NCBI GenBank assembly: GCA_034430395.1
Contig: DAOUEQ010000036.1
Location: 2,116-66,115, forward strand
DNA: 64,000 bases
Origin: Anaerolineales bacterium
GTDB lineage: Bacteria; Chloroflexota; Anaerolineae; Anaerolineales; E44-bin32
Direction of reading: 5' to 3'
The first letter of the stretch is position 1. Each line of letters starts with the position of its first letter. A model generated the notes under the pieces. That model was not told where the DNA came from, made no database searches, and saw nothing but the letters and a program-made list of their open reading frames with translations. Shown piece after piece: positions 4,322-63,436 of the stretch. A program made the position numbers and the translations under genes.

Positions 4322-4393
4322 AGCGGGCGACGGGATTCGAACCCGTGAATGTCAGCTTGGAAGGCTGATGCCTTACCACTTGGCGACGCCCGC
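4322..4393 (-). tRNA. tRNA-Gly (anticodon TCC)
   Basis: The reverse complement is GCGGGCGTCGCCAAGTGGTAAGGC...CTTCCAA...GGTTCGAATCCCGTCGCCCGCT. The cloverleaf is intact, and the hairpin AACCGCC-CGGA-GGCGGTT follows the 3' end. Confidence 0.85.
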
Positions 4394-4875: not shown

Positions 4876-4948
4876 TCGGGGTGGGCGGACTTGAACCGCC
4901 GACCTCCGCGTCCCAAACGCGGCGCGCTTCCAACTGCGCTACACCCCG
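4876..4948 (-). tRNA. tRNA-Pro (anticodon TGG)
   Basis: The reverse complement is CGGGGTGTAGCGCAGTTGGAAGCGCG-CCGCG-TTTGGGA-CGCGG...GGCGG-TTCAAGT-CCGCC-CACCCCG-A. Confidence 0.85.
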
Positions 4949-5860: not shown

Positions 5861-6520
5861 TCACTCGAGCTGGCGTAAGACGAGCATCACTTTACCTTGA
5901 ACCTCGAGGTGTTTAGGATCCTGGATGATGATTGAGTCCATCGTGGGATTCGCAGGCTGTAGCCGGATCTTATTACCTTCATGATAAATGTATTTTAGCG
6001 TCGTCTCTTCGAGATCCCGCAGCCACACCGCCACCATATCGCCATTGCGCCAATGGTAATCGCGCTTCATCACAACAATATCACCATCACTGACCATGGC
6101 ATCGATCATTGAGTCACCCTTGACTTCAAGGGCGAACACTTCATCTGTGGTACTGAGCATGTCGCGCGTGATTTCGATCGCCTCGTCAGCACCAAACATG
6201 GGCGAATCCGTACTGGGAAGATGCACAGGTTCGCTGGCGAAGATACGACCCACCATCGGGATGCGGATCACATCGCCCAGTTTGCCCGTCGCTTTTAACA
6301 GTTTATCAGTGAGGCGGATCCCCCGGGACACGTTCTGATCGCGATCCAGGTATCCCTCTTCCACCAATCGATTGAGATTGTAATTGACAACAGATGTCGA
6401 AGAGATCCCCACAGACTTCCCAATTTGTCGAATGGATGGGGGGTAACCATTATCCGTGGAGAAACTCTGGATAAAATCCAGTATCCGCCGCTGACGGTCC
6501 GTCAATTTTCCCTTCGCCAT
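5861..6520 (-). CDS. lexA: LexA repressor (SOS regulator, S24 self-cleaving)
   Basis: 219 aa from MAKGKLTDRQRRILDFI. It has the wHTH segment PPSIRQIGKSVGISSTSVV and the Ser/Lys dyad context VKGDSM ... VVMKR. GAGGAGG lies 4 nt upstream of the ATG at 6520. Confidence 0.92.
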   Translation of the reverse strand: MAKGKLTDRQRRILDFIQSFSTDNGYPPSIRQIGKSVGISSTSVVNYNLNRLVEEGYLDRDQNVSRGIRLTDKLLKATGKLGDVIRIPMVGRIFASEPVHLPSTDSPMFGADEAIEITRDMLSTTDEVFALEVKGDSMIDAMVSDGDIVVMKRDYHWRNGDMVAVWLRDLEETTLKYIYHEGNKIRLQPANPTMDSIIIQDPKHLEVQGKVMLVLRQLE

Positions 6521-6583
6521 TTTTCCTCCTCTGTGAGGCTGTTTGCCGCACCAGGAAATCAATCAACCCCCATCGAAAATATC

Positions 6584-6626
6584 GCACACTTGTTCTTATT
6601 CTAACGGAACATACGTTCTATGTCAA
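6584..6626 (-). promoter_or_regulatory. lexA promoter TTGACA-17-TAGAAT with two LexA (Cheo-type) boxes
   Basis: Read on the minus strand: TTGACA (6626-6621), spacer containing GAACGTATGTTC (6618-6607), TAGAAT (6603-6598), then GAACAAGTGTGC (6595-6584). Confidence 0.7.
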
Positions 6627-22319: not shown

Positions 22320-22542
22320 AAATAACTAATCCGATAACGTCTGGAATCCTTGGTCAATTCTTAAGCCATCCGGGCTGGGAGGTGATATTTCCTGTTCTAC
22401 CCATTTCAACACATCTGCATCCAACACATGTGCGAAGCCAATATGCGCAGGGCAAGTCCCTCATTCCGCGAATTCTAACATACCCGGCAGAAGCACAGAA
22501 TCTACATTAACTCATCGAGAGTCCCAACCCTGAACAACCCGA

Positions 22543-22557: not shown

Positions 22558-23982
22558 ATGGATTTGTTTGACCACGCGATGAAGGATCGTATAGCTCGCG
22601 AAGCCCCGCTCGCTGCGCGCATGCGGCCGCGCACCATGGATGAATTCGAAGGCCAAGAAGAAATTGTAGGAGAAGATTGCCTTCTTCGGCGTGCTATCCA
22701 GGCCGATCGGCTCTTCTCTTCGATACTCTTCTGGGGGCCGCCCGGCACAGGAAAAACCACACTGGCGATGATCATCGCCAACACCACAGAATCTCATTTC
22801 ATAACAATCTCAGCTGTTCTTGCTGGGAAAGCAGATCTCCGGCGTATTATCAAGGCGACGGAGGAGCGGCGAAAACTATATGGTAAGCGCACGATCCTAT
22901 TTGTGGATGAGGTCCATCGCTGGAATAAAGCTCAACAGGATGCCCTCCTACCTCACGTTGAGAACGGGACTATCACTCTCATCGGTGCGACGACTGAAAA
23001 TCCTTACTTCGAGGTGATCGGCGCCCTCGTCTCACGCTCACGAATTTTCCAATTGCGTCCGCTTGAGGATAAGGATGTGCACGGGATTATCCAACGCGCC
23101 CTCACCGACAGCGAACGTGGATACGGCAACAAACAGATCCGGCTTGATCAGAAGGCTCTGGATCACTTGATCCGTGTGTCGGGCGGGGATGCCCGCAATG
23201 CGCTCAACGCGCTCGAACTAGCTGTGGAAACTACGCCCCCTGATAAGGATGGCGTAATTCACCTTACATTAGATGTTGCCCAGGAGTCCATCCAGCGCCG
23301 CGCGGTCCTATATGATAAAGACGGCGACGCGCATTACGACACCGTATCGGCCTTTATCAAATCGGTGCGTGGTTCCGATCCAGACGCCGCTCTTTACTGG
23401 CTGGCGAAGATGCTCTACGCCGGCGAGGACCCGCGTTTCATCCTGCGGCGGTTATTGATCCTGGCTTCGGAGGATATCGGTCTGGCTGACCCAATGGGCC
23501 TCGTTGTCGCCTCCGCCGCAGTACAAGCCTTCGAATTCGTTGGGTTACCAGAGGGGATCTATGCCCTCGTTGAGGCTACACTCTACCTGGCAACCACCGC
23601 AAAATCGAATACCGCAAGCGCCTATTTCAAGGCCTATAGATACCTCGAGGAAAAAGGTGTAGTCGAAGTCCCACAACATTTAAAAGATGCCAACCGCGAT
23701 GGGAAGGCTCTCGGGCACGGGAGGGGATATAAGTATCCACACACTCACCCCGGGCACCACATCGGGCAGGGATATTTACCTGCCTCACTCCTCGGAACCT
23801 ATTTTTACAGCCCCTCCAAACAAGGTTACGAGATCCAGATTGCTGAACGGCTTGAACGATGGCGCGCGGCGCAGCGGAAGGCATTGGATATTGATGACAC
23901 GCTCGAGCCAACCGATCTCGCCGATCAAGAGATCGATGCAATCAAGAAAAAACATACGATGCGCAGAAACAGATCGACCTAG
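22558..23982 (+). CDS. rarA: Replication-associated recombination protein A (AAA+ ATPase)
   Basis: 474 aa with Walker A GPPGTGKTTLA, Walker B LFVDEVHR and the C-terminal MgsA region YLAKM...GEDPRFI. Confidence 0.92.
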   Translation: MDLFDHAMKDRIAREAPLAARMRPRTMDEFEGQEEIVGEDCLLRRAIQADRLFSSILFWGPPGTGKTTLAMIIANTTESHFITISAVLAGKADLRRIIKATEERRKLYGKRTILFVDEVHRWNKAQQDALLPHVENGTITLIGATTENPYFEVIGALVSRSRIFQLRPLEDKDVHGIIQRALTDSERGYGNKQIRLDQKALDHLIRVSGGDARNALNALELAVETTPPDKDGVIHLTLDVAQESIQRRAVLYDKDGDAHYDTVSAFIKSVRGSDPDAALYWLAKMLYAGEDPRFILRRLLILASEDIGLADPMGLVVASAAVQAFEFVGLPEGIYALVEATLYLATTAKSNTASAYFKAYRYLEEKGVVEVPQHLKDANRDGKALGHGRGYKYPHTHPGHHIGQGYLPASLLGTYFYSPSKQGYEIQIAERLERWRAAQRKALDIDDTLEPTDLADQEIDAIKKKHTMRRNRST

Positions 23983-51206: not shown

Positions 51207-52967
51207 TCATTCCCTAGCTCCAATATCATGCAACCACTTCTTGTTCAACTCGCGGCGACGGCCAGGATCCTTCCCAAGCACAAGCGGTCGCCCACGCGCG
51301 TCGATGATCAAACCAACGGCCCCACCCGCAATGCGCAGTGCTCCTGCTTTCCCGGGTCCTCCGAAGCCGACATCGATCCCGCGTTCAGGTCTGAGCGTAA
51401 GGTGAGCATGCTCACCTTGCCGGATGGGCACAATTGCGAGCTGACCCATTCGAACCTCGCCGACAACGTCCTCACTACTTTGCTCGAGTTCGAGGTGCAG
51501 ACTGAGAATCTTGCGTCCCATCCGGGCATTCCCGACTGGCGACACAACTGTCCCCAGGCTCACGAAGCTTCCGGATTCTAAAACATGTACACTCAGCATT
51601 GGGACCGAGCCTGACGCGGCGCCAAGCGATGGGGAGAGTCCGTGCGGATCTAGCACAAGCGTTGTGATCCCTGTTGGCTCTAAGGCGTCCAACAATGTTA
51701 ATGCAGCATATCCTGGTCGAGGAGCTCTTGCCAAGACACTCCCACTGGCGATAACCGGTTCCACAGGAGGCATTAGCCAAGTTGATTTGAGATCTTTGCC
51801 CTTGGGCCAGCGCTTGCGAGCGCGTTTCAGTGATAGCCGCAGAATCTCACGCGCCAATGCTAATTCTAGAAGAAGATCATCATCTTCGGTAGGAACAGTT
51901 CCCGGGTTAATCGATTTGTTATAGATGTAATCCAAGATCATTCGCTCCGACGTCTCGGATGGCAGCCAACGGGCAATATCGTTGAGACTGCAATGCCGGA
52001 GCAGAGTCGGCAAGGGTTCCCCTAATCCCAAGTCTGTTTCAACACTCAAGCGCAGATCTCCCTCGAATGCTGCAGCGATCATCGTATTGTTTGCGCCTAC
52101 ATCCACACCAAGAACACCCTTCGCCGGGTCGTAGATGCGGCTCAAATAGCGGATCACCCTACCGTACGCGTCAGCAGTGAGCATCATGGTGCCGCCAGAC
52201 CATTGTTCCAATTCATCAAAACCGCGCACCCGTTTATTACGCGCCTCGGCGATCGCCTCTCCGAGCGCCAGACGGGCATGCCCCAGATCCTCCACACGGA
52301 GACTGGGTCTAACATTCGGTGCAAGAGCGATATCGACCCGTTCTCCCACGCGGTCGGCGATCGCGGCGCCCAGATTGCGGTTGCCTGCATATACGATCCG
52401 TGGTCGTTGATTCGGGGGGAAAAGGTCGCTGGCTACAGCGACGAATTCGATTAATTGCAGAACGGAATCCTGCGCGCCGCCATCCGTCCCGCCAACAACG
52501 AGGATCAAGTCCGGGCGGGTGGATAAGATAAGATCAATTTTTTCCGATTCGCGTCGACTATCCAGCAGGTCAATGACACCCACAAGGTCTAAATATGTCG
52601 AATCGGCGAGTCGCAATGCGCTGTCTGTTGAAACTCCCGGCATCAGACCCACAAGTACCGTTCGGACCTTCGGTCCCGCTGAAGCCGTCGCAACGAAAGT
52701 ATCTACACCCGATCCCTGGCTGGTGACGGGCATGATCAGCAAGTCCGTTTCGTCGAGCAATTTCCTTCCTGTAACGGCCAGCACCTGGTCGAGAGCCATT
52801 CGAACACCCTCGCTAATATCGAACAAAGGTGCTTTTGCAGTTGACGGTGCTCGACCAGAAGCGATCAGACGAAAGTGGCCGTCGACGACATCGAATAGGC
52901 TGGCGCGCGTGCTCACGCTGCCCACATCGACAGCCAATATGGTATCGGCATCCATTATCGTACTCAT
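51207..52967 (-). CDS. Actin-fold (ASKHA) ATPase resembling glutamate-mutase accessory protein GlmL/MutL
   Basis: 586 aa with phosphate-1 motif ILAVDVGSVSTRASLFD, the second-lobe motif LVVGGTDGG and later VLGVDVGANNT. Confidence 0.65.
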   Translation of the reverse strand: MSTIMDADTILAVDVGSVSTRASLFDVVDGHFRLIASGRAPSTAKAPLFDISEGVRMALDQVLAVTGRKLLDETDLLIMPVTSQGSGVDTFVATASAGPKVRTVLVGLMPGVSTDSALRLADSTYLDLVGVIDLLDSRRESEKIDLILSTRPDLILVVGGTDGGAQDSVLQLIEFVAVASDLFPPNQRPRIVYAGNRNLGAAIADRVGERVDIALAPNVRPSLRVEDLGHARLALGEAIAEARNKRVRGFDELEQWSGGTMMLTADAYGRVIRYLSRIYDPAKGVLGVDVGANNTMIAAAFEGDLRLSVETDLGLGEPLPTLLRHCSLNDIARWLPSETSERMILDYIYNKSINPGTVPTEDDDLLLELALAREILRLSLKRARKRWPKGKDLKSTWLMPPVEPVIASGSVLARAPRPGYAALTLLDALEPTGITTLVLDPHGLSPSLGAASGSVPMLSVHVLESGSFVSLGTVVSPVGNARMGRKILSLHLELEQSSEDVVGEVRMGQLAIVPIRQGEHAHLTLRPERGIDVGFGGPGKAGALRIAGGAVGLIIDARGRPLVLGKDPGRRRELNKKWLHDIGARE

Positions 52968-57435: not shown

Positions 57436-57614
57436 ACCAGATCGACGAATTAATCGAGCTAGTCTTCGCTGCACCTTAAAAAACCCTCCATCGCCGCGCA
57501 GTATAGCATATCCAGCGCGCGCCGGATACAACCGTGCGCCCCAATACAGAGAGGGGAGAGAAGCCTTACTGGCCGATTGTAGACCGCGGTATTATGCGGG
57601 TCAAGCGGGCGAGA

Positions 57615-57658
57615 TTGCACGCGCTGGGTCTTAGACTATAATTACGAACAGTTGTTCG
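57615..57658 (+). promoter_or_regulatory. nurA promoter TTGCAC-16-TATAAT with a perfect LexA (Cheo) box CGAACAGTTGTTCG over the predicted transcription start
   Basis: The hexamers are at 57615-57620 and 57637-57642, the palindrome at 57645-57658 and the ATG at 57672. Confidence 0.7.
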
Positions 57659-57671
57659 AGAGACAAACACT

Positions 57672-58856
57672 ATGGGAATCCATCTACCATCCTTACTTCC
57701 ACAAATGCAAGAGCTCGGTCAATCCCTCTATGAGCGAAGCCTGCAGTTGTCCAAGATGGTCCCCAAAGCCATTGAAGCCCTGCATGTCACGGCCGATCTC
57801 GATCACTCCGATCTTCAATCCAGAATTATGAAGGCGGGAAATCGCTGGACTGGTGCAATTCCCACCGAAGAAGCGCTCGATCAGACGTTCCCGCCGCCTA
57901 AAGCCCCACAGAGTCTCCACGTGATCGGCGCCGATGGCTCACAGATATATCCGGATCGCCACGCATCAGCGTTCTATTATTTAATCAACATAGGCAGCAT
58001 CGTCGTCTCACGCGGCAACGGCGAAACTCCCACTATCCAGCAGGAATCTCGGCTCTTTTTTGAACTCGAAGACCTTTACGGCGAAGCTGATTATCCCATC
58101 CAGAATGCTTATGTTAATCTGCGGCGTGATGTCGCCGAGATGAAGATCCTCACAGAACGGGCTGAAACCCTGGCTGGCGAGAAGACTCTTGCCATTCTGG
58201 ACAACAGTCTTCTATTGTGGATGGCGCTGCAAACTGGCGGGTCAGCATCTCGGGAGACGGATCGTTACCTCCAGCAGTATCTAAAACTGCTCGATCGTTT
58301 GCACTCCTCGGAGACAGGCCTTGCAGGTTTCATCGACCGCCCGCGGAGTGTAAGCGTGCTTGCCTTGATCCACCTTGCTGGGTTACCAGGCGATCAGATT
58401 ACTCAGGATTCTGTACACCTGACACCCTTCCGCGGTCTAACTGATCGGGCAATTTTCACCCATTTGCTACCACCCGGTCATCGCAGCGCGATTTTCATCT
58501 CAGCGTCACCGTTAAATAGCGACTTCCGCACGGCCGGTCACGAAATCCATTTCTTCTATCTGAAGACTGCCGCTGATGACACGGTTGTGCGAGTCGAAAT
58601 CCCGATCTGGGTCGCACAAGACCCTGAGCTGCTCAATCGTGTTCATGCCGGTATTTTGCAGGATTGCCAGACGACAGGAGGGTTCCCCTATACATTGGTG
58701 CGAGCCCATGAATTGGCGGTTATCCCTCCGCAAGAGCGAGCTGCTTTCGATGATATGCTGCAACGCACGCTCATCGGACACGGTCTGCGCCCTTCACAAT
58801 CTCAAAAAGCACTCACAAAAGAGCTCACCGGAAAGCGGAAACACTATCGGTTATAA
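57672..58856 (+). CDS. nurA: NurA-domain 5'-3' nuclease
   Basis: 394 aa. The motif HVIGADGSQIYPD matches the N-terminal catalytic Asp (xDGS) of NurA. Gene order with a HerA-type ATPase supports the call. Confidence 0.7.
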   Translation: MGIHLPSLLPQMQELGQSLYERSLQLSKMVPKAIEALHVTADLDHSDLQSRIMKAGNRWTGAIPTEEALDQTFPPPKAPQSLHVIGADGSQIYPDRHASAFYYLINIGSIVVSRGNGETPTIQQESRLFFELEDLYGEADYPIQNAYVNLRRDVAEMKILTERAETLAGEKTLAILDNSLLLWMALQTGGSASRETDRYLQQYLKLLDRLHSSETGLAGFIDRPRSVSVLALIHLAGLPGDQITQDSVHLTPFRGLTDRAIFTHLLPPGHRSAIFISASPLNSDFRTAGHEIHFFYLKTAADDTVVRVEIPIWVAQDPELLNRVHAGILQDCQTTGGFPYTLVRAHELAVIPPQERAAFDDMLQRTLIGHGLRPSQSQKALTKELTGKRKHYRL

Positions 58857-58867
58857 CAGGAGGATTG

Positions 58868-59470
58868 ATGCCGGAATCGCCGATGATGATCGGACGCGTG
58901 ACACGCTGCAGCACACGTGGTTTCGTGGGCGCTATGCAGGTATCCGTGAAAGAGGTCCCCGTGTTCGGCTCTTTTTGCCAGGCGGAAGCTCAAAGCGGGC
59001 GCAGTCACGTTGTAGGGCTGGTGTATGACATCAGCATCACGGATGACCACTTCGCTCGGCAAATAGCTGCTCTCGAAGATGTTCCCCAAGAACAAATCGC
59101 GGATGGGCAGATCAACCGCCAGGTTCCCATTGAATTTAACGCTCTGGCCGTCGGCTTCCGCGATGATGCGGGATTTCACCAAGCCCTGCCCCCGCGCCCC
59201 CCTCTTACACTGGCCTCGGTCTTCAGCATGGCGCCCAAAGACACAGTTGATTTCACATCAGAGCTTCATTTTCTACAGACGATTCTGAACGCGCCTCAAC
59301 TCCCTGTCGACGAACTTCTAGCAACCACCTTGCGGTTGTCCGCGCAGATAAGGCCTGAGGGGGAACGCGAGCGGTTTCTACTTCAAGCTGGCCGCGAAAT
59401 CGCCCGCTTGCTCGCCCAAGACCTAACTCGGTTGGAGAACATCCTGCGTGGTCTGCGCTCAGAGGGATGA
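58868..59470 (+). CDS. Hypothetical 200-aa protein between nurA and herA (possible HAS-barrel-like N-terminus)
   Basis: AGGAGG lies 5 nt upstream of the ATG at 58868. The N-terminal MIGRVTRCSTRGFVGAM...HVVGLVYDISI resembles the N-terminal barrel pattern of the downstream HerA (LGIVLEGSLSTGLQVKL...IFFGIITDIAL). Confidence 0.6.
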   Translation: MPESPMMIGRVTRCSTRGFVGAMQVSVKEVPVFGSFCQAEAQSGRSHVVGLVYDISITDDHFARQIAALEDVPQEQIADGQINRQVPIEFNALAVGFRDDAGFHQALPPRPPLTLASVFSMAPKDTVDFTSELHFLQTILNAPQLPVDELLATTLRLSAQIRPEGERERFLLQAGREIARLLAQDLTRLENILRGLRSEG

Positions 59471-59525: not shown

Positions 59526-61187
59526 ATGTCAGACTCATCTGAACTTGACGTTTTTTTCGGTTCCAAACGAGATGAACGCCCTCTGGGGATTGTCCTGGAG
59601 GGATCGCTTTCCACCGGCCTGCAGGTTAAATTAGACCCGCGATATGCAATCGAAAAACTCGCCGTAGGAAGATATGTCGTCATCCAGAGCCGAAAAACCG
59701 GCAGCATTTTCTTCGGGATCATCACCGATATCGCTCTCGGAGCGACCACGCCTGATCTGCTACATCATCCACCCGATGCCTCGGATCCATTCCTGCTCGA
59801 TGTGTATTCCGGCGGGGTGGCCTTCGCCACGCTGCACGTCAGCCCGATGTTAATGCTCGATGATGCGGACGATCAACCCCGCCCCATAAAGACGATTCCC
59901 TCACATTTCTCGGCCATCTATGAGGCAACGGCGCAGGATGTCGCCCGTGTATTCGGAGAGGAGGACGAGGCGCACTTCTTCATCGGAGCACCGCTGGATA
60001 TGGAGGCCGTTCAGGTCAACCTCGATCTAGAAAGGTTCGTTGAGCGCTCATCTGGAGTGTTTGGAAAGACGGGCACAGGAAAATCGTTCATCACACGCAC
60101 GATCCTCGCCGGCATCATACGCTCAGGCCTGGCATCGACGCTGATTTTCGACATGCATAACGATTACGGATGGTCGGTTATGGACGAGACCGGCCGAGAG
60201 TATAAAGGATTGAGGCAGCTCTTTCCAGATGGACGTGTTAGTGTGATCACACTTGATGAGACAACCTCGCGCGCCCGAGGTAGCAAGTTCGATGGGATCC
60301 TTACCATCGGTTATGAGGAGATCGAGCCTGAAGACATGGAAATGTTGGCATCCTTGCTCGGGTTGAGTGACATTCAAACCGGCGCGCTCTACTTCCTTTA
60401 CCAACGTTTAGGCAGGAAATGGATCTCGAAATTACTGGATGAACAGCACGAGGAAGAGATTCAGAATATGCTCGATAGCGGTCGCATTGTGGGAGGAACG
60501 CTGGGAGCGATCCGGCGCAAGCTCGAATCCTTCATCCCTCGCATGGGATTTCTCGTACCCGGTGAGGGGTCAAAGGTGGTCGATGATATCTTCCAACGAC
60601 TCAACATTGGAACGAGCGTTGTCCTTGAGTTCGGAAATTACGGAAACACTTTGGCCGCCTACGTGTTGGTCGCCAATTACCTCACCCGACGTATCCATGC
60701 AAGCTACGTCCATCGTAAAAACATTGCTGCCGGGAAGAAAGGCGAAGAGCCCCGCCCACTCGTGATCGTGATCGAGGAGGCGCATAAATTCCTCGACCCA
60801 AGCGTCGCCGGGCATACGATCTTCGGTAACATCGCCCGGGAGCTGCGTAAATACAACGTGACCTTGCTGATCGTCGATCAGCGGCCGAGCGGCATCGAAG
60901 ATGAGGTGATGAGCCAGATCGGGACTCGGGTGACCTGTTTGCTCGATAATGAAGCCGACATTCGGGCTGTTTTCTCGGGTGTAAGCGGAGCAAGCACTCT
61001 ACGCGAGGTGCTCGCCCGCCTTGACACCCGTCAACAGGCACTCATTCTGGGTCACGCCGTTCCTATGCCCGTAGTCGTCCGCACTCGAGATTACGATCAG
61101 CGTTTCTACGCTGCGATTGGCATGGACGAATCCGATGATGCCTCGGGGGCAAAGCCACCCGCAGAGGACAAACTTTTCCCGGATTGA
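59526..61187 (+). CDS. herA: HerA-like hexameric ATPase/translocase (DUF87 type)
   Basis: 553 aa with an N-terminal barrel, Walker A GVFGKTGTGKSF, Walker B LVIVIEEAHKFL and the later LLIVDQRPS. Confidence 0.8.
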   Translation: MSDSSELDVFFGSKRDERPLGIVLEGSLSTGLQVKLDPRYAIEKLAVGRYVVIQSRKTGSIFFGIITDIALGATTPDLLHHPPDASDPFLLDVYSGGVAFATLHVSPMLMLDDADDQPRPIKTIPSHFSAIYEATAQDVARVFGEEDEAHFFIGAPLDMEAVQVNLDLERFVERSSGVFGKTGTGKSFITRTILAGIIRSGLASTLIFDMHNDYGWSVMDETGREYKGLRQLFPDGRVSVITLDETTSRARGSKFDGILTIGYEEIEPEDMEMLASLLGLSDIQTGALYFLYQRLGRKWISKLLDEQHEEEIQNMLDSGRIVGGTLGAIRRKLESFIPRMGFLVPGEGSKVVDDIFQRLNIGTSVVLEFGNYGNTLAAYVLVANYLTRRIHASYVHRKNIAAGKKGEEPRPLVIVIEEAHKFLDPSVAGHTIFGNIARELRKYNVTLLIVDQRPSGIEDEVMSQIGTRVTCLLDNEADIRAVFSGVSGASTLREVLARLDTRQQALILGHAVPMPVVVRTRDYDQRFYAAIGMDESDDASGAKPPAEDKLFPD

Positions 61188-61356: not shown

Positions 61357-61385
61357 TTGTATTAACAGAACATTTGTGCTATTCT
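61357..61385 (+). promoter_or_regulatory. Promoter TTGTAT-17-TATTCT with a LexA-like box GAACATTTGTGC in the spacer; the ATG lies 7 nt after the -10 (leaderless)
   Basis: The -35 is at 61357-61362, the box at 61368-61379, the -10 at 61380-61385 and the ATG at 61393. The architecture matches the lexA promoter. Confidence 0.55.
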
Positions 61386-61392
61386 GTATACA

Positions 61393-62607
61393 ATGGATCC
61401 TGTAGAAAAACTCGCCATCTCCAGTCGGGAAACCACTTTCGAGGCCGATGGGCTCCCGCTGACAACTCGTCCGAATAACCTTGCCGGTGGTTTACAGCCA
61501 TCCGTGATCAGCAGGCGCTTTGGCGATCCGGACAAGGTCCACCGTGTGCGTTCTGACGGACACGATTTCCACGTTCACCTCGCCGCAAGCGGTGGAGGGC
61601 GTCAGCTTCCCCTGCTTAAGGCCATGCTTACCTCTGCGTGTGAACGGAATTGTAATTATTGTCCTTTTCGCGCCGGGCGAGACTTCCGCAGGGTAACTTT
61701 CAGACCGGAGGAACTCGCACAGACATTCTTCGCTGCCCATCGCTCCGGGCTTGTCGAAGGCCTCTTCCTTTCAACTGGCATCTTCGCCGGCGGGGCAAAC
61801 ACACAGAATAAGCTTCTGGAAACAGCCGAAATCCTGCGCAGGAAGTTTAGCTATCGTGGCTACCTGCATCTGAAGATCATGCCGGGGGCTGAACGCGGCC
61901 AAGTTCTGAGCGCGATGAAACTCGCCGACCGTATATCGACCAATCTTGAGGCCCCCAACGCATCTTGCCTTCAAAAATTAGCCCCGCAAAAGGCGTTTAA
62001 AGAGGAATTGGTTGCTCCACTTCAATGGGCGCAGGAGATTCGCCAAACCTTACCAGCCCATCTTGGGTGGCGCGGTCATTGGCCCACCAGCACCACCCAG
62101 TTCGTGGTTGGCCCGGCCGGAGAGACGGATCTGGAACTCTTGAGCACCGTCGATAATTTGCATCGCCAAGCAGAATTGCAGCGCGCCTATTTTGAGACTT
62201 TTAGTCCTGTTGAAGGAACACCGATGGAGAACCACCCACCAGAGGATCCACAACGCAAGGTGCGGCTCTACCAGGCTTCTTTCTTGCTGCGCGATTATGG
62301 TTTTAATCTGGAGGAACTCCCCTTCGCACCGATAGGTAATCTCCCCAAAGAGATCGATCCCAAGGTGGCTTATGCGAATCAGGTTATCCGCGGGAATCCC
62401 GTAGAAATTAATAAGGCGGATCGCAATGAGCTAATTCGTGTGCCCGGGATTGGCCCACGCGGAGCAGATCAGATCTTGAAGGCACGCGACATATCTAAAA
62501 TCCGCGAACTTGGTCAACTCCGCCGCTTTGGTGTCCTCACCAAACGCGCCGCACCTTATATCACGCTGAATGGAGCCACACCATCCAAACAGCTAACGCT
62601 ATTCTGA
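61393..62607 (+). CDS. Putative DNA modification/repair radical SAM protein with C-terminal helix-hairpin-helix
   Basis: 404 aa with the CxxxCxxC cluster CERNCNYCPF and the C-terminal HhH LIRVPGIGPRGADQILKAR. Length and layout match the TIGR03916-type family as I remember it. Confidence 0.75.
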   Translation: MDPVEKLAISSRETTFEADGLPLTTRPNNLAGGLQPSVISRRFGDPDKVHRVRSDGHDFHVHLAASGGGRQLPLLKAMLTSACERNCNYCPFRAGRDFRRVTFRPEELAQTFFAAHRSGLVEGLFLSTGIFAGGANTQNKLLETAEILRRKFSYRGYLHLKIMPGAERGQVLSAMKLADRISTNLEAPNASCLQKLAPQKAFKEELVAPLQWAQEIRQTLPAHLGWRGHWPTSTTQFVVGPAGETDLELLSTVDNLHRQAELQRAYFETFSPVEGTPMENHPPEDPQRKVRLYQASFLLRDYGFNLEELPFAPIGNLPKEIDPKVAYANQVIRGNPVEINKADRNELIRVPGIGPRGADQILKARDISKIRELGQLRRFGVLTKRAAPYITLNGATPSKQLTLF

Positions 62608-62651
62608 TTACCTTCGCCCGGATTTGCCTTCAATATTGAGTCCACTTAACA

Positions 62652-62684
62652 AAAACACCCTCGAGGCGAGCGGAAGGTGTTTTA
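62652..62684 (+). terminator. Intrinsic terminator after the radical SAM gene
   Basis: AAACACC-(CTCG AGG CGAG CGGAA)-GGTGTTT is followed by T-rich sequence. Confidence 0.55.
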
Positions 62685-62803
62685 GAAAACTCTATGCTTA
62701 TTTTGTGGTCTCAGGCAAAAATGTATACAGTTTCCAACGCATTTTCACCCAGTTAATGGTTTCCTTTGATTTTGGCTATTTTGATACTTCAGCCAGTGAC
62801 ATT

Positions 62804-63436
62804 TCATTTTTTATACGCGGTTTTTATCTCCTCAAGTTGGTCGTCTGTGAGTGGCTGCGGTTTGCCAACCATTAATGCCTGGTGATAGGTCTGCAAACCC
62901 ACCTCGGCATTAAACGCCGTTTCATAAGCATGGTTCAAATCGCTACCAATGGCTACCAACCCGTGCTTGTCTAGTAAAACGACTTTTAAATCAGGTCGGC
63001 TTTTGAATATCTCAACCGTGATTTCACCGACTTTTTGTGTGCCTGGGCAAGCCCAGGGTGCAACAGGGATTGGGGCGCCACAAGCGAATAATTCAAGATT
63101 TGCTGGGGGTATTTCTTCCCCCAACATCGCAAACGTGATCGCATAAGATGAGTGCGTATGACATATCCCCCCCACCTCAGCCAGATTCCGATAGATGGCT
63201 GTATGCAGAGGCGCCTCAGAAGACGGAGCTAATCCTTCGATTAAATTGCCTTTCAAATCAACGACGGAGATATCATCTACGTTCATTTGGTCATACTTCA
63301 CACCACTGGGGGTGATGGCGACCAGGTCTTTACCGGCTCGGGTGCTAAAATTTCCTGCTGATAAGCGGATCAGGCCGACTTCATTGGCTTTGACGACGGT
63401 TCCCAAAAGCTCTTCACGTACGGATTGATGCTTCAT
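62804..63436 (-). CDS. Class II aldolase/adducin-domain protein (L-fuculose-phosphate aldolase / L-ribulose-5-phosphate 4-epimerase family)
   Basis: 210 aa with SAGNFS, the PSS...LH loop and the metal ligands in ICHTHSSYA. Confidence 0.8.
   Translation of the reverse strand: MKHQSVREELLGTVVKANEVGLIRLSAGNFSTRAGKDLVAITPSGVKYDQMNVDDISVVDLKGNLIEGLAPSSEAPLHTAIYRNLAEVGGICHTHSSYAITFAMLGEEIPPANLELFACGAPIPVAPWACPGTQKVGEITVEIFKSRPDLKVVLLDKHGLVAIGSDLNHAYETAFNAEVGLQTYHQALMVGKPQPLTDDQLEEIKTAYKK

Follow-up and report, generated by a model that had tools for sequence, protein, structure and literature searches.

NurA and HerA are a nuclease and a translocase that in archaea resect the ends of double-strand breaks, and HerA also occurs in anti-phage systems. 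The physiological role of the bacterial pair, work on which has been nearly confined to Deinococcus and Thermus, is to our knowledge poorly settled. Here we analyze a 64,000-nucleotide stretch of DNA from an Anaerolineales bacterium (assembly GCA_034430395.1, contig DAOUEQ010000036.1, positions 2,116 to 66,115 of the forward strand), hereafter the window, in whose own numbering all coordinates are given. In this window a 14-bp palindrome, CGAACAGTTGTTCG, lies in front of nurA, a small gene that we call orfX, and herA. We consider it probable, at roughly 0.85, that the LexA repressor, whose gene lies 51 kb away in the same window, uses the palindrome as an operator and would keep nurA-orfX-herA repressed until DNA damage occurs. 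LexA binding, the position of the transcription start, repression, and damage inducibility of this operon are what we infer from sequence comparison.

For Deinococcus radiodurans, a paper in which the word "SOS" has no occurrence and LexA control is not mentioned describes NurA-HerA as a complex that resects the 5' strand at double-strand breaks (PMC9960219). The Anaerolineales locus resembles that of Deinococcus in that bacterial genes for the NurA nuclease and the HerA translocase lie together, but differs from it by the extra conserved orfX and by a HerA that reaches 93 bits against an NCBIfam cutoff of 800. The original prediction, made from the letters of the window, that SOS regulation of bacterial NurA/HerA had not been described is consistent with the full-text literature: searches that paired NurA/HerA with LexA, its regulon, or Chloroflexi turned up no account of control of this kind, an empty search being no proof of absence.

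The motif itself is well documented. CGAACN4GTTCG is the listed SOS-box consensus of Bacillus subtilis and Staphylococcus aureus (PMC9578287; PMC3091678), and the original prediction had attributed the motif to LexA of Bacillus-type lineages. With the SOS box of Bacillus subtilis and other Gram-positive bacteria, where LexA is also called DinR, the window shares the consensus, its presence in the promoter of lexA, and a predicted overlap with the core promoter or the start of transcription. It differs in that the host belongs to the Anaerolineales, the lexA promoter has a fixed pair of boxes with a GTGC half-site, LexA carries an Ala-Ser pair at the cleavage position, and the nurA-orfX-herA operon is absent from Bacillus. 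Closer in phylogeny, Dehalococcoides, a member of the Chloroflexota, is said, in a J Bacteriol report of 2002, to use a Gram-positive-type LexA box.

A further parallel comes from alpha- and beta-proteobacteria, in which comparative genomics predicted that a splB-like radical-SAM gene is under LexA control (PMC3323433). In the window, the strongest box of all belongs to a radical-SAM gene adjacent to herA, whereas the LexA motif and the phylum differ from the proteobacterial case, and the two genes are likened by description only.

A LexA-type palindrome at the nurA promoter

The region upstream of nurA reads TTGCAC, 16 nt, TATAAT, 2 nt, CGAACAGTTGTTCG, and 13 nt to the ATG at 57672, and every one of these positions and spacings had been given exactly in the original prediction. 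The features are as follows.

57615..57620, plus strand: -35 element TTGCAC of the nurA promoter, read from the sequence and from orthologue conservation
57637..57642, plus strand: -10 element TATAAT of the nurA promoter, read from the sequence and near-invariant across orthologues
57645..57658, no strand assigned: putative LexA (Cheo-type) operator CGAACAGTTGTTCG, resting on matrix score, conservation, and a footprint island

The palindrome agrees with CGAAC-N4-GTTCG perfectly, at 14 of 14 specified positions. In the 64-kb window the perfect 14-mer is present as a single copy, against a mean of 0.08 in shuffled sequences and at least one match in 8 of 100 shuffles, a single-window count that is not significant by itself and only suggestive, so that the question needed related sequences. 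The perfect core GAAC-N4-GTTC occurs exactly twice, once at nurA and once in the lexA promoter (6607-6618), where the same core motif had indeed been predicted. With up to one mismatch allowed, the core is found 29 times in the window against 25.6 expected, no excess over chance; counts of the loose consensus are uninformative, and only the matrix and orthology tests discriminate.

The matrix was derived from lexA promoters. In the window, lexA and its boxes are arranged as follows.

5861..6520, minus strand: lexA, 219 amino acids, predicted repressor (Pfam LexA_DNA_bind and Peptidase_S24; TIGR00498)
6606..6619, no strand assigned: lexA operator 1, AGAACGTATGTTCC as read on the lexA strand, 19.5 bits
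6583..6596, no strand assigned: lexA operator 2, AGAACAAGTGTGCG as read on the lexA strand, 19.05 bits

The encoded protein scores 173.4 bits against the NCBIfam equivalog TIGR00498, whose cutoff is 110.95. Operator 1 lies within the 17-nt spacer that separates the -35 element TTGACA (6621-6626) from the -10 element TAGAAT (6598-6603), while operator 2 begins 1 nt past the -10, and the nurA box is placed likewise, directly after its own -10. By its sequence, this two-box layout has the form of the classic autoregulatory arrangement.

The comparison set comprised 80 metagenomic lexA loci (LexA 55-96 % identical), 72 of which had usable upstream regions. A perfect GAAC-N4-GTTC is present in all 72, most of which have a further box, CGAACAAGYGTGCG, 23 bp downstream of the first. 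The resulting matrix spans 20 positions and was built from 87 distinct lexA-promoter sites only, no nurA site being used. Scanned across the window, it places four sites on top, at 61364-61383 (20.0 bits), 6603-6622 (19.5 bits), 6580-6599 (19.05 bits), and 57642-57661 (17.3 bits). The four boxes of the original prediction (6606-6619, 6583-6596, 57645-57658, and 61367-61380) thus exist and stand apart from the background, the next-best match being an intragenic one of 13.6 bits and the remainder scoring at most 11.6 bits. The nurA site ranks fourth in the window, and its score is covered by the spread of the training sites (median 17.9 bits). Apart from the lexA promoters, 360 kb of lexA-locus sequence gave no match of at least 13 bits.

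Two lesser matches deserve mention. The box-like TATCGAACAAAGGTGCTTTT (13.6 bits, 52817-52836) was rejected as an operator because it sits within a GlmL-like coding sequence (51207-52967, minus strand); it is identical in a relative (L011:1175-1194) and is probably conserved as coding sequence. The weak LexA-like CATCCAACACATGTGCGAAG (11.6 bits, 22418-22437) is located about 120 bp upstream of rarA/mgsA (22558-23982), in the intergenic region common to rarA/mgsA and maf.

Conservation of the box at orthologous nurA loci

A single scan of species-representative genomes returned 75 nurA loci, all from the Anaerolineae-type clade, with NurA proteins 37-87 % identical to that of the window; 69 of these loci, together 729.5 kb, include the nurA start. 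The original prediction had proposed a weight-matrix scan of related nurA upstream regions and had named absence of the palindrome from orthologous operons as evidence against it. On this point the prediction held. Under the matrix from lexA promoters, 61 of the 69 loci show a single LexA-type box scoring 12 bits or more in the last 60 bp before nurA, its distance to the start codon being 22-27 nt. Altogether the 69 loci hold 87 sites of at least 12 bits, distributed as 61 at nurA, about 16 before a radical-SAM gene, and about 10 elsewhere, these last being unexplained and spread over the other 725 kb or so.

A footprint profile anchored on the box was compiled from 33 upstream regions no more than 80 % identical to each other. 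Its islands of conservation are TTGC, TATAAT, and cGGAACAGKTGTTCGa only, the promoter spacer and the leader being unconserved. TTGC stands at 16-18 nt from the -10 with about 1.0-1.2 bits per position, and TATAAT reaches 1.65-1.81 bits per position.

In a divergent sub-group (L050, L052-L057, L060, L064, and L073; NurA 38-44 % identical) the promoter differs; about 25 nt ahead of nurA, a box of the form CGAAC-N4-GTGCT shares positions with an extended -10, TGcTACAAT. The GTGC half-site of these boxes is the same variant that is found at lexA box 2. We read this arrangement as an operator that has been relocated and kept through a rebuild of the promoter. In the same sub-group the ATG lies 7-10 nt past the extended -10, which implies a leaderless transcript.

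These sites also bear on the notion that the palindrome is a 5' stem-loop of the nurA messenger RNA, acting on stability or translation, or else a functionless chance palindrome, both of which we hold to be very improbable. A 5-bp hairpin is possible, and a perfect 14-mer does turn up in some shuffled windows, as given above. The leader, however, folds no better than shuffled sequence (z = -0.55) and matches no Rfam family, while most orthologues have GGAAC...GTTCG and the relocated group GAAC...GTGC, so that pairing is broken and the half-sites are kept, with no compensatory changes. Besides, in the relocated group the box precedes the point at which transcription likely starts, and conservation in 61 of 69 loci excludes a chance palindrome.

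In one distant relative, the contig of locus L044 (NurA 45 % identical) also holds a lexA gene (L156) that has the two boxes, and about 50 kb separate it from nurA, much as they do in the window. Three other contigs (L009, L041, and L048) are labelled Methanosarcinales archaeon, Phycisphaera mikurensis, and Thermoanaerobaculia, yet have an Anaerolineales-type nurA-orfX-herA, with the first of them 86 % identical and its flanking genes identical; these labels are likely binning errors.

Proposed repression by LexA and points that weigh against it

The palindrome begins 2 nt after the -10 of a predicted sigma-70-type promoter and would cover the expected transcription start. LexA at 57645-57658 would occupy +1 to about +10 and repress sterically, from the same placement as at lexA box 2. 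With a LexA dimer in place, open-complex formation or promoter escape would be prevented and nurA-orfX-herA kept off. Upon DNA damage, RecA filaments would stimulate LexA self-cleavage and the operator would be vacated, so that derepression would yield NurA nuclease, HerA translocase, and the small HerA-N-terminal-like protein at the same time. From the identity of its motif with the lexA boxes and its conservation across about 60 species, the predicted operator is a canonical Cheo-type one. The new element is its target, and the comparative data support the view that in Anaerolineales the LexA regulon includes the conserved nurA-orfX-herA operon.

If so, the order-wide conserved operator would constitute independent evidence that NurA-HerA takes part in the DNA-damage response of Anaerolineales, and would add to what Gram-positive-type LexA regulons are known to contain. 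The four boxes of a single genome, together with variants in which the operator is relocated or lost, also provide a natural test set, and two side leads emerge, namely the conserved HAS-barrel-like orfX and the Ala-Ser cleavage site of LexA. The advance is incremental, inside a well-known regulatory scheme, and involves no new mechanism. A broader scenario, which we put forward only tentatively, is that the SOS regulon took over an archaeal-type end-resection module consisting of NurA, a free-standing HerA-N-terminal/HAS-barrel protein, and HerA; the module might even be this lineage's main damage-induced pathway of double-strand-break resection, with orfX as a hitherto unrecognised subunit or regulator of the HerA ring and with LexA cleaving itself at a non-canonical Ala-Ser bond.

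Several observations weigh against control of nurA-orfX-herA by LexA. To begin with the promoter, it is a predicted one, and its -35 element TTGCAC is weak, agreeing with the Escherichia coli consensus TTGACA at 3 of 6 positions; because of this -35, a generic promoter scan of the window did not list TTGCAC-16-TATAAT, and the assignment is retained on the basis of orthologue conservation. The regulation would not be universal, since 8 of the 69 nurA loci (L041, L045, L049, L051, L058, L059, L061, and L066) have no box. Many of the genomes are related as well, so that 61 box-bearing loci do not equal 61 independent events. Several of the box-less loci keep TATAAT, and one of them (L058) keeps a CGAAC half-site; by their sequences, the box-less loci suggest a secondary loss of SOS control.

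The box at nurA is also not identical in its constraints to those at lexA. Its central AGKT, as well as the flanking G and A, is more conserved than in the lexA boxes, and this extra conservation could reflect a further constraint, for instance from the transcription start or from another factor. The same feature speaks for a reading in which the palindrome would be the operator of another transcription factor recognising GAAC/GTTC half-sites, its likeness to LexA boxes being coincidental. We judge this improbable, given that the same motif occupies the autoregulatory position of every related lexA gene, that a matrix trained only on lexA-promoter sites picks the nurA site, that the GTGC half-site variant is common to lexA box 2 and the relocated nurA boxes, and that no regulator gene is linked to the operon.

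The remaining difficulty concerns LexA itself. The window LexA aligns with solved LexA structures and has the catalytic-type dyad of Ser137 (GDSM) and Lys176 (TLKY), which is invariant in a 20-sequence LexA alignment. At the cleavage position, Ala95-Ser96 (IFASEP) is aligned with the Ala84-Gly85 scissile pair of E. coli, and at this position both E. coli and Thermotoga LexA have an Ala-Gly scissile bond. Among pattern-matched LexA relatives, 16 have Ala-Ser and 5 have Ala-Gly, and Ala-Ser thus appears from the alignment to be a clade-wide feature. With Ala-Ser in place of Ala-Gly, RecA-stimulated cleavage, and hence inducibility, is not assured.

From this follows the reading in which LexA binds the box but is poorly cleavable or non-cleavable, the box serving constitutive or otherwise-signalled repression of nurA-orfX-herA. 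IFAS(E/Q)P in place of the canonical xAAGEP speaks for it. We nevertheless regard it as unlikely: the invariant Ser137 and Lys176 and the Peptidase_S24 domain point to selection for self-cleavage, and the boxed genes, which comprise lexA, an end-resection nuclease and translocase, and a repair-like radical-SAM enzyme, form a DNA-damage set. Repression that is relieved by damage remains our preferred account of the nurA operator.

The nurA-orfX-herA operon and its surroundings

The genes that the putative operator would control are the following.

57672..58856, plus strand: nurA, 394 amino acids (Pfam NurA PF09376, E 1.8e-27, 96.9 bits against a cutoff of 21)
58868..59470, plus strand: orfX, 200 amino acids, with AGGAGG before the ATG at 58868 and a modelled fold like the HerA N-terminal part (HAS-barrel)
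59526..61187, plus strand: herA, 553 amino acids (Pfam DUF87/HerA central domain, E 6.9e-29, 102 bits against a cutoff of 23.2)

The identities proposed for nurA, herA, and lexA in the original prediction are upheld by these Pfam matches and by the LexA_DNA_bind and Peptidase_S24 domains of LexA. As to the operon, nurA and herA do lie together, as predicted, but the third gene at 58868-59470 had been omitted, and the operon is to be given as nurA-orfX-herA. The NurA-domain gene and the gene for HerA (DUF87, FtsK-HerA ATPase) are on the same strand and separated only by orfX, with gaps of 11 nt between nurA and orfX and 55 nt between orfX and herA, and no terminator-like sites were found between nurA, orfX, and herA. 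This organization is that of a predicted three-gene operon.

NurA homologues in metagenome-assembled genomes of Anaerolineales/Chloroflexota are annotated "DNA double-strand break repair nuclease NurA". HerA is 55-94 % identical in the orthologous loci and matches the NCBIfam and PADLOC HerA models (best PADLOC E 3.1e-38), while against the NCBIfam equivalogs NF040819 and NF040937 it scores 79.8 and 93.2 bits, below the respective cutoffs of 970 and 800. It is thus to be classed, from its sequence, as a divergent bacterial HerA with a domain-level assignment only.

Between nurA and herA, orfX is present in every locus that reaches that far. Searches against Pfam, NCBIfam, and PADLOC gave no family match for it, and its homologues are annotated as hypothetical proteins. 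An AlphaFold2 model built with 33 homologues (pLDDT 83.8) predicts a beta-barrel followed by helices, for which the best Foldseek matches in the PDB are the N-terminal parts of HerA chains (8zit_Q at E 7.4e-6, 8wfd, and 4d2i; range 7e-6 to 1e-4). The model therefore describes orfX as a free-standing HerA-N-terminal (HAS-barrel)-like protein, and it may belong to the complex as an additional subunit.

HerA-containing anti-phage systems (SIR2-HerA/Nezha, DUF4297-HerA, and TdpAB) resemble the locus in that its HerA ATPase matches PADLOC models and the orfX fold matches the HerA N-terminal part. They differ in that NurA and orfX, like the radical-SAM protein, have no PADLOC match, and in that the operon is vertically conserved across the order, with fixed flanking synteny and a LexA box. 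In its conservation pattern, the operon appears to behave as housekeeping repair and not as a mobile defence island. The anti-phage defence reading of the operon was rejected as unlikely, as PADLOC matches HerA only and the synteny is conserved.

Upstream of the operon, a divergent promoter-like site on the minus strand, TTGACC-17-TACAAT (10 of 12), is found at 57576-57604. It faces a conserved cluster of membrane-protein genes, made up of a 95-amino-acid open reading frame (ORF), DUF6754, and a 220-amino-acid ORF, and its -35, GGTCAAG on the plus strand, is kept in many orthologues. The LexA-type box lies more than 40 bp upstream of this divergent promoter. The divergent 95-amino-acid ORF and its neighbours encode hydrophobic membrane proteins and were rejected as a local alternative regulator.

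Downstream of herA, one locus of the divergent sub-group (L055) has a weak box of 13.6 bits (L055:11678-11697), 70 nt upstream of an ORF for an Mre11/SbcD-like metallophosphoesterase, a hint that herA and mre11 may be linked in archaeal style in this sub-lineage. In the window, herA is followed by the radical-SAM unit.

61367..61380, no strand assigned: LexA-type box AGAACATTTGTGCT, 20.0 bits, the top matrix match in the window
61393..62607, plus strand: gene for a radical-SAM and helix-hairpin-helix protein, TIGR03916-like (Pfam Radical_SAM, HHH_3)

An extended -10, TGcTATTCT, is fused to the box and stands only 7 nt from the ATG of the radical-SAM gene, whose messenger RNA is probably leaderless. 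In about 16 orthologous loci the same box precedes this gene, about 29 nt ahead of its start, and the gene follows herA in some genomes. The protein matches TIGR03916 at E 1.4e-74 and 251.7 bits, under the cutoff of 343.5, and no TIGR03915/UDG-like partner is present, the sole downstream ORF (62624-62875) being without a family match; for these reasons the gene is called only TIGR03916-like. With a box and promoter of its own, it is predicted to form a transcription unit separate from the operon.

At the other end of the window, positions 75-2832 hold a Rep_trans-family replication initiator and a tyrosine integrase that adjoin a tRNA gene (2760-2832), probably a small integrated element. Further tRNA genes lie at 4322-4393 and 4876-4948.

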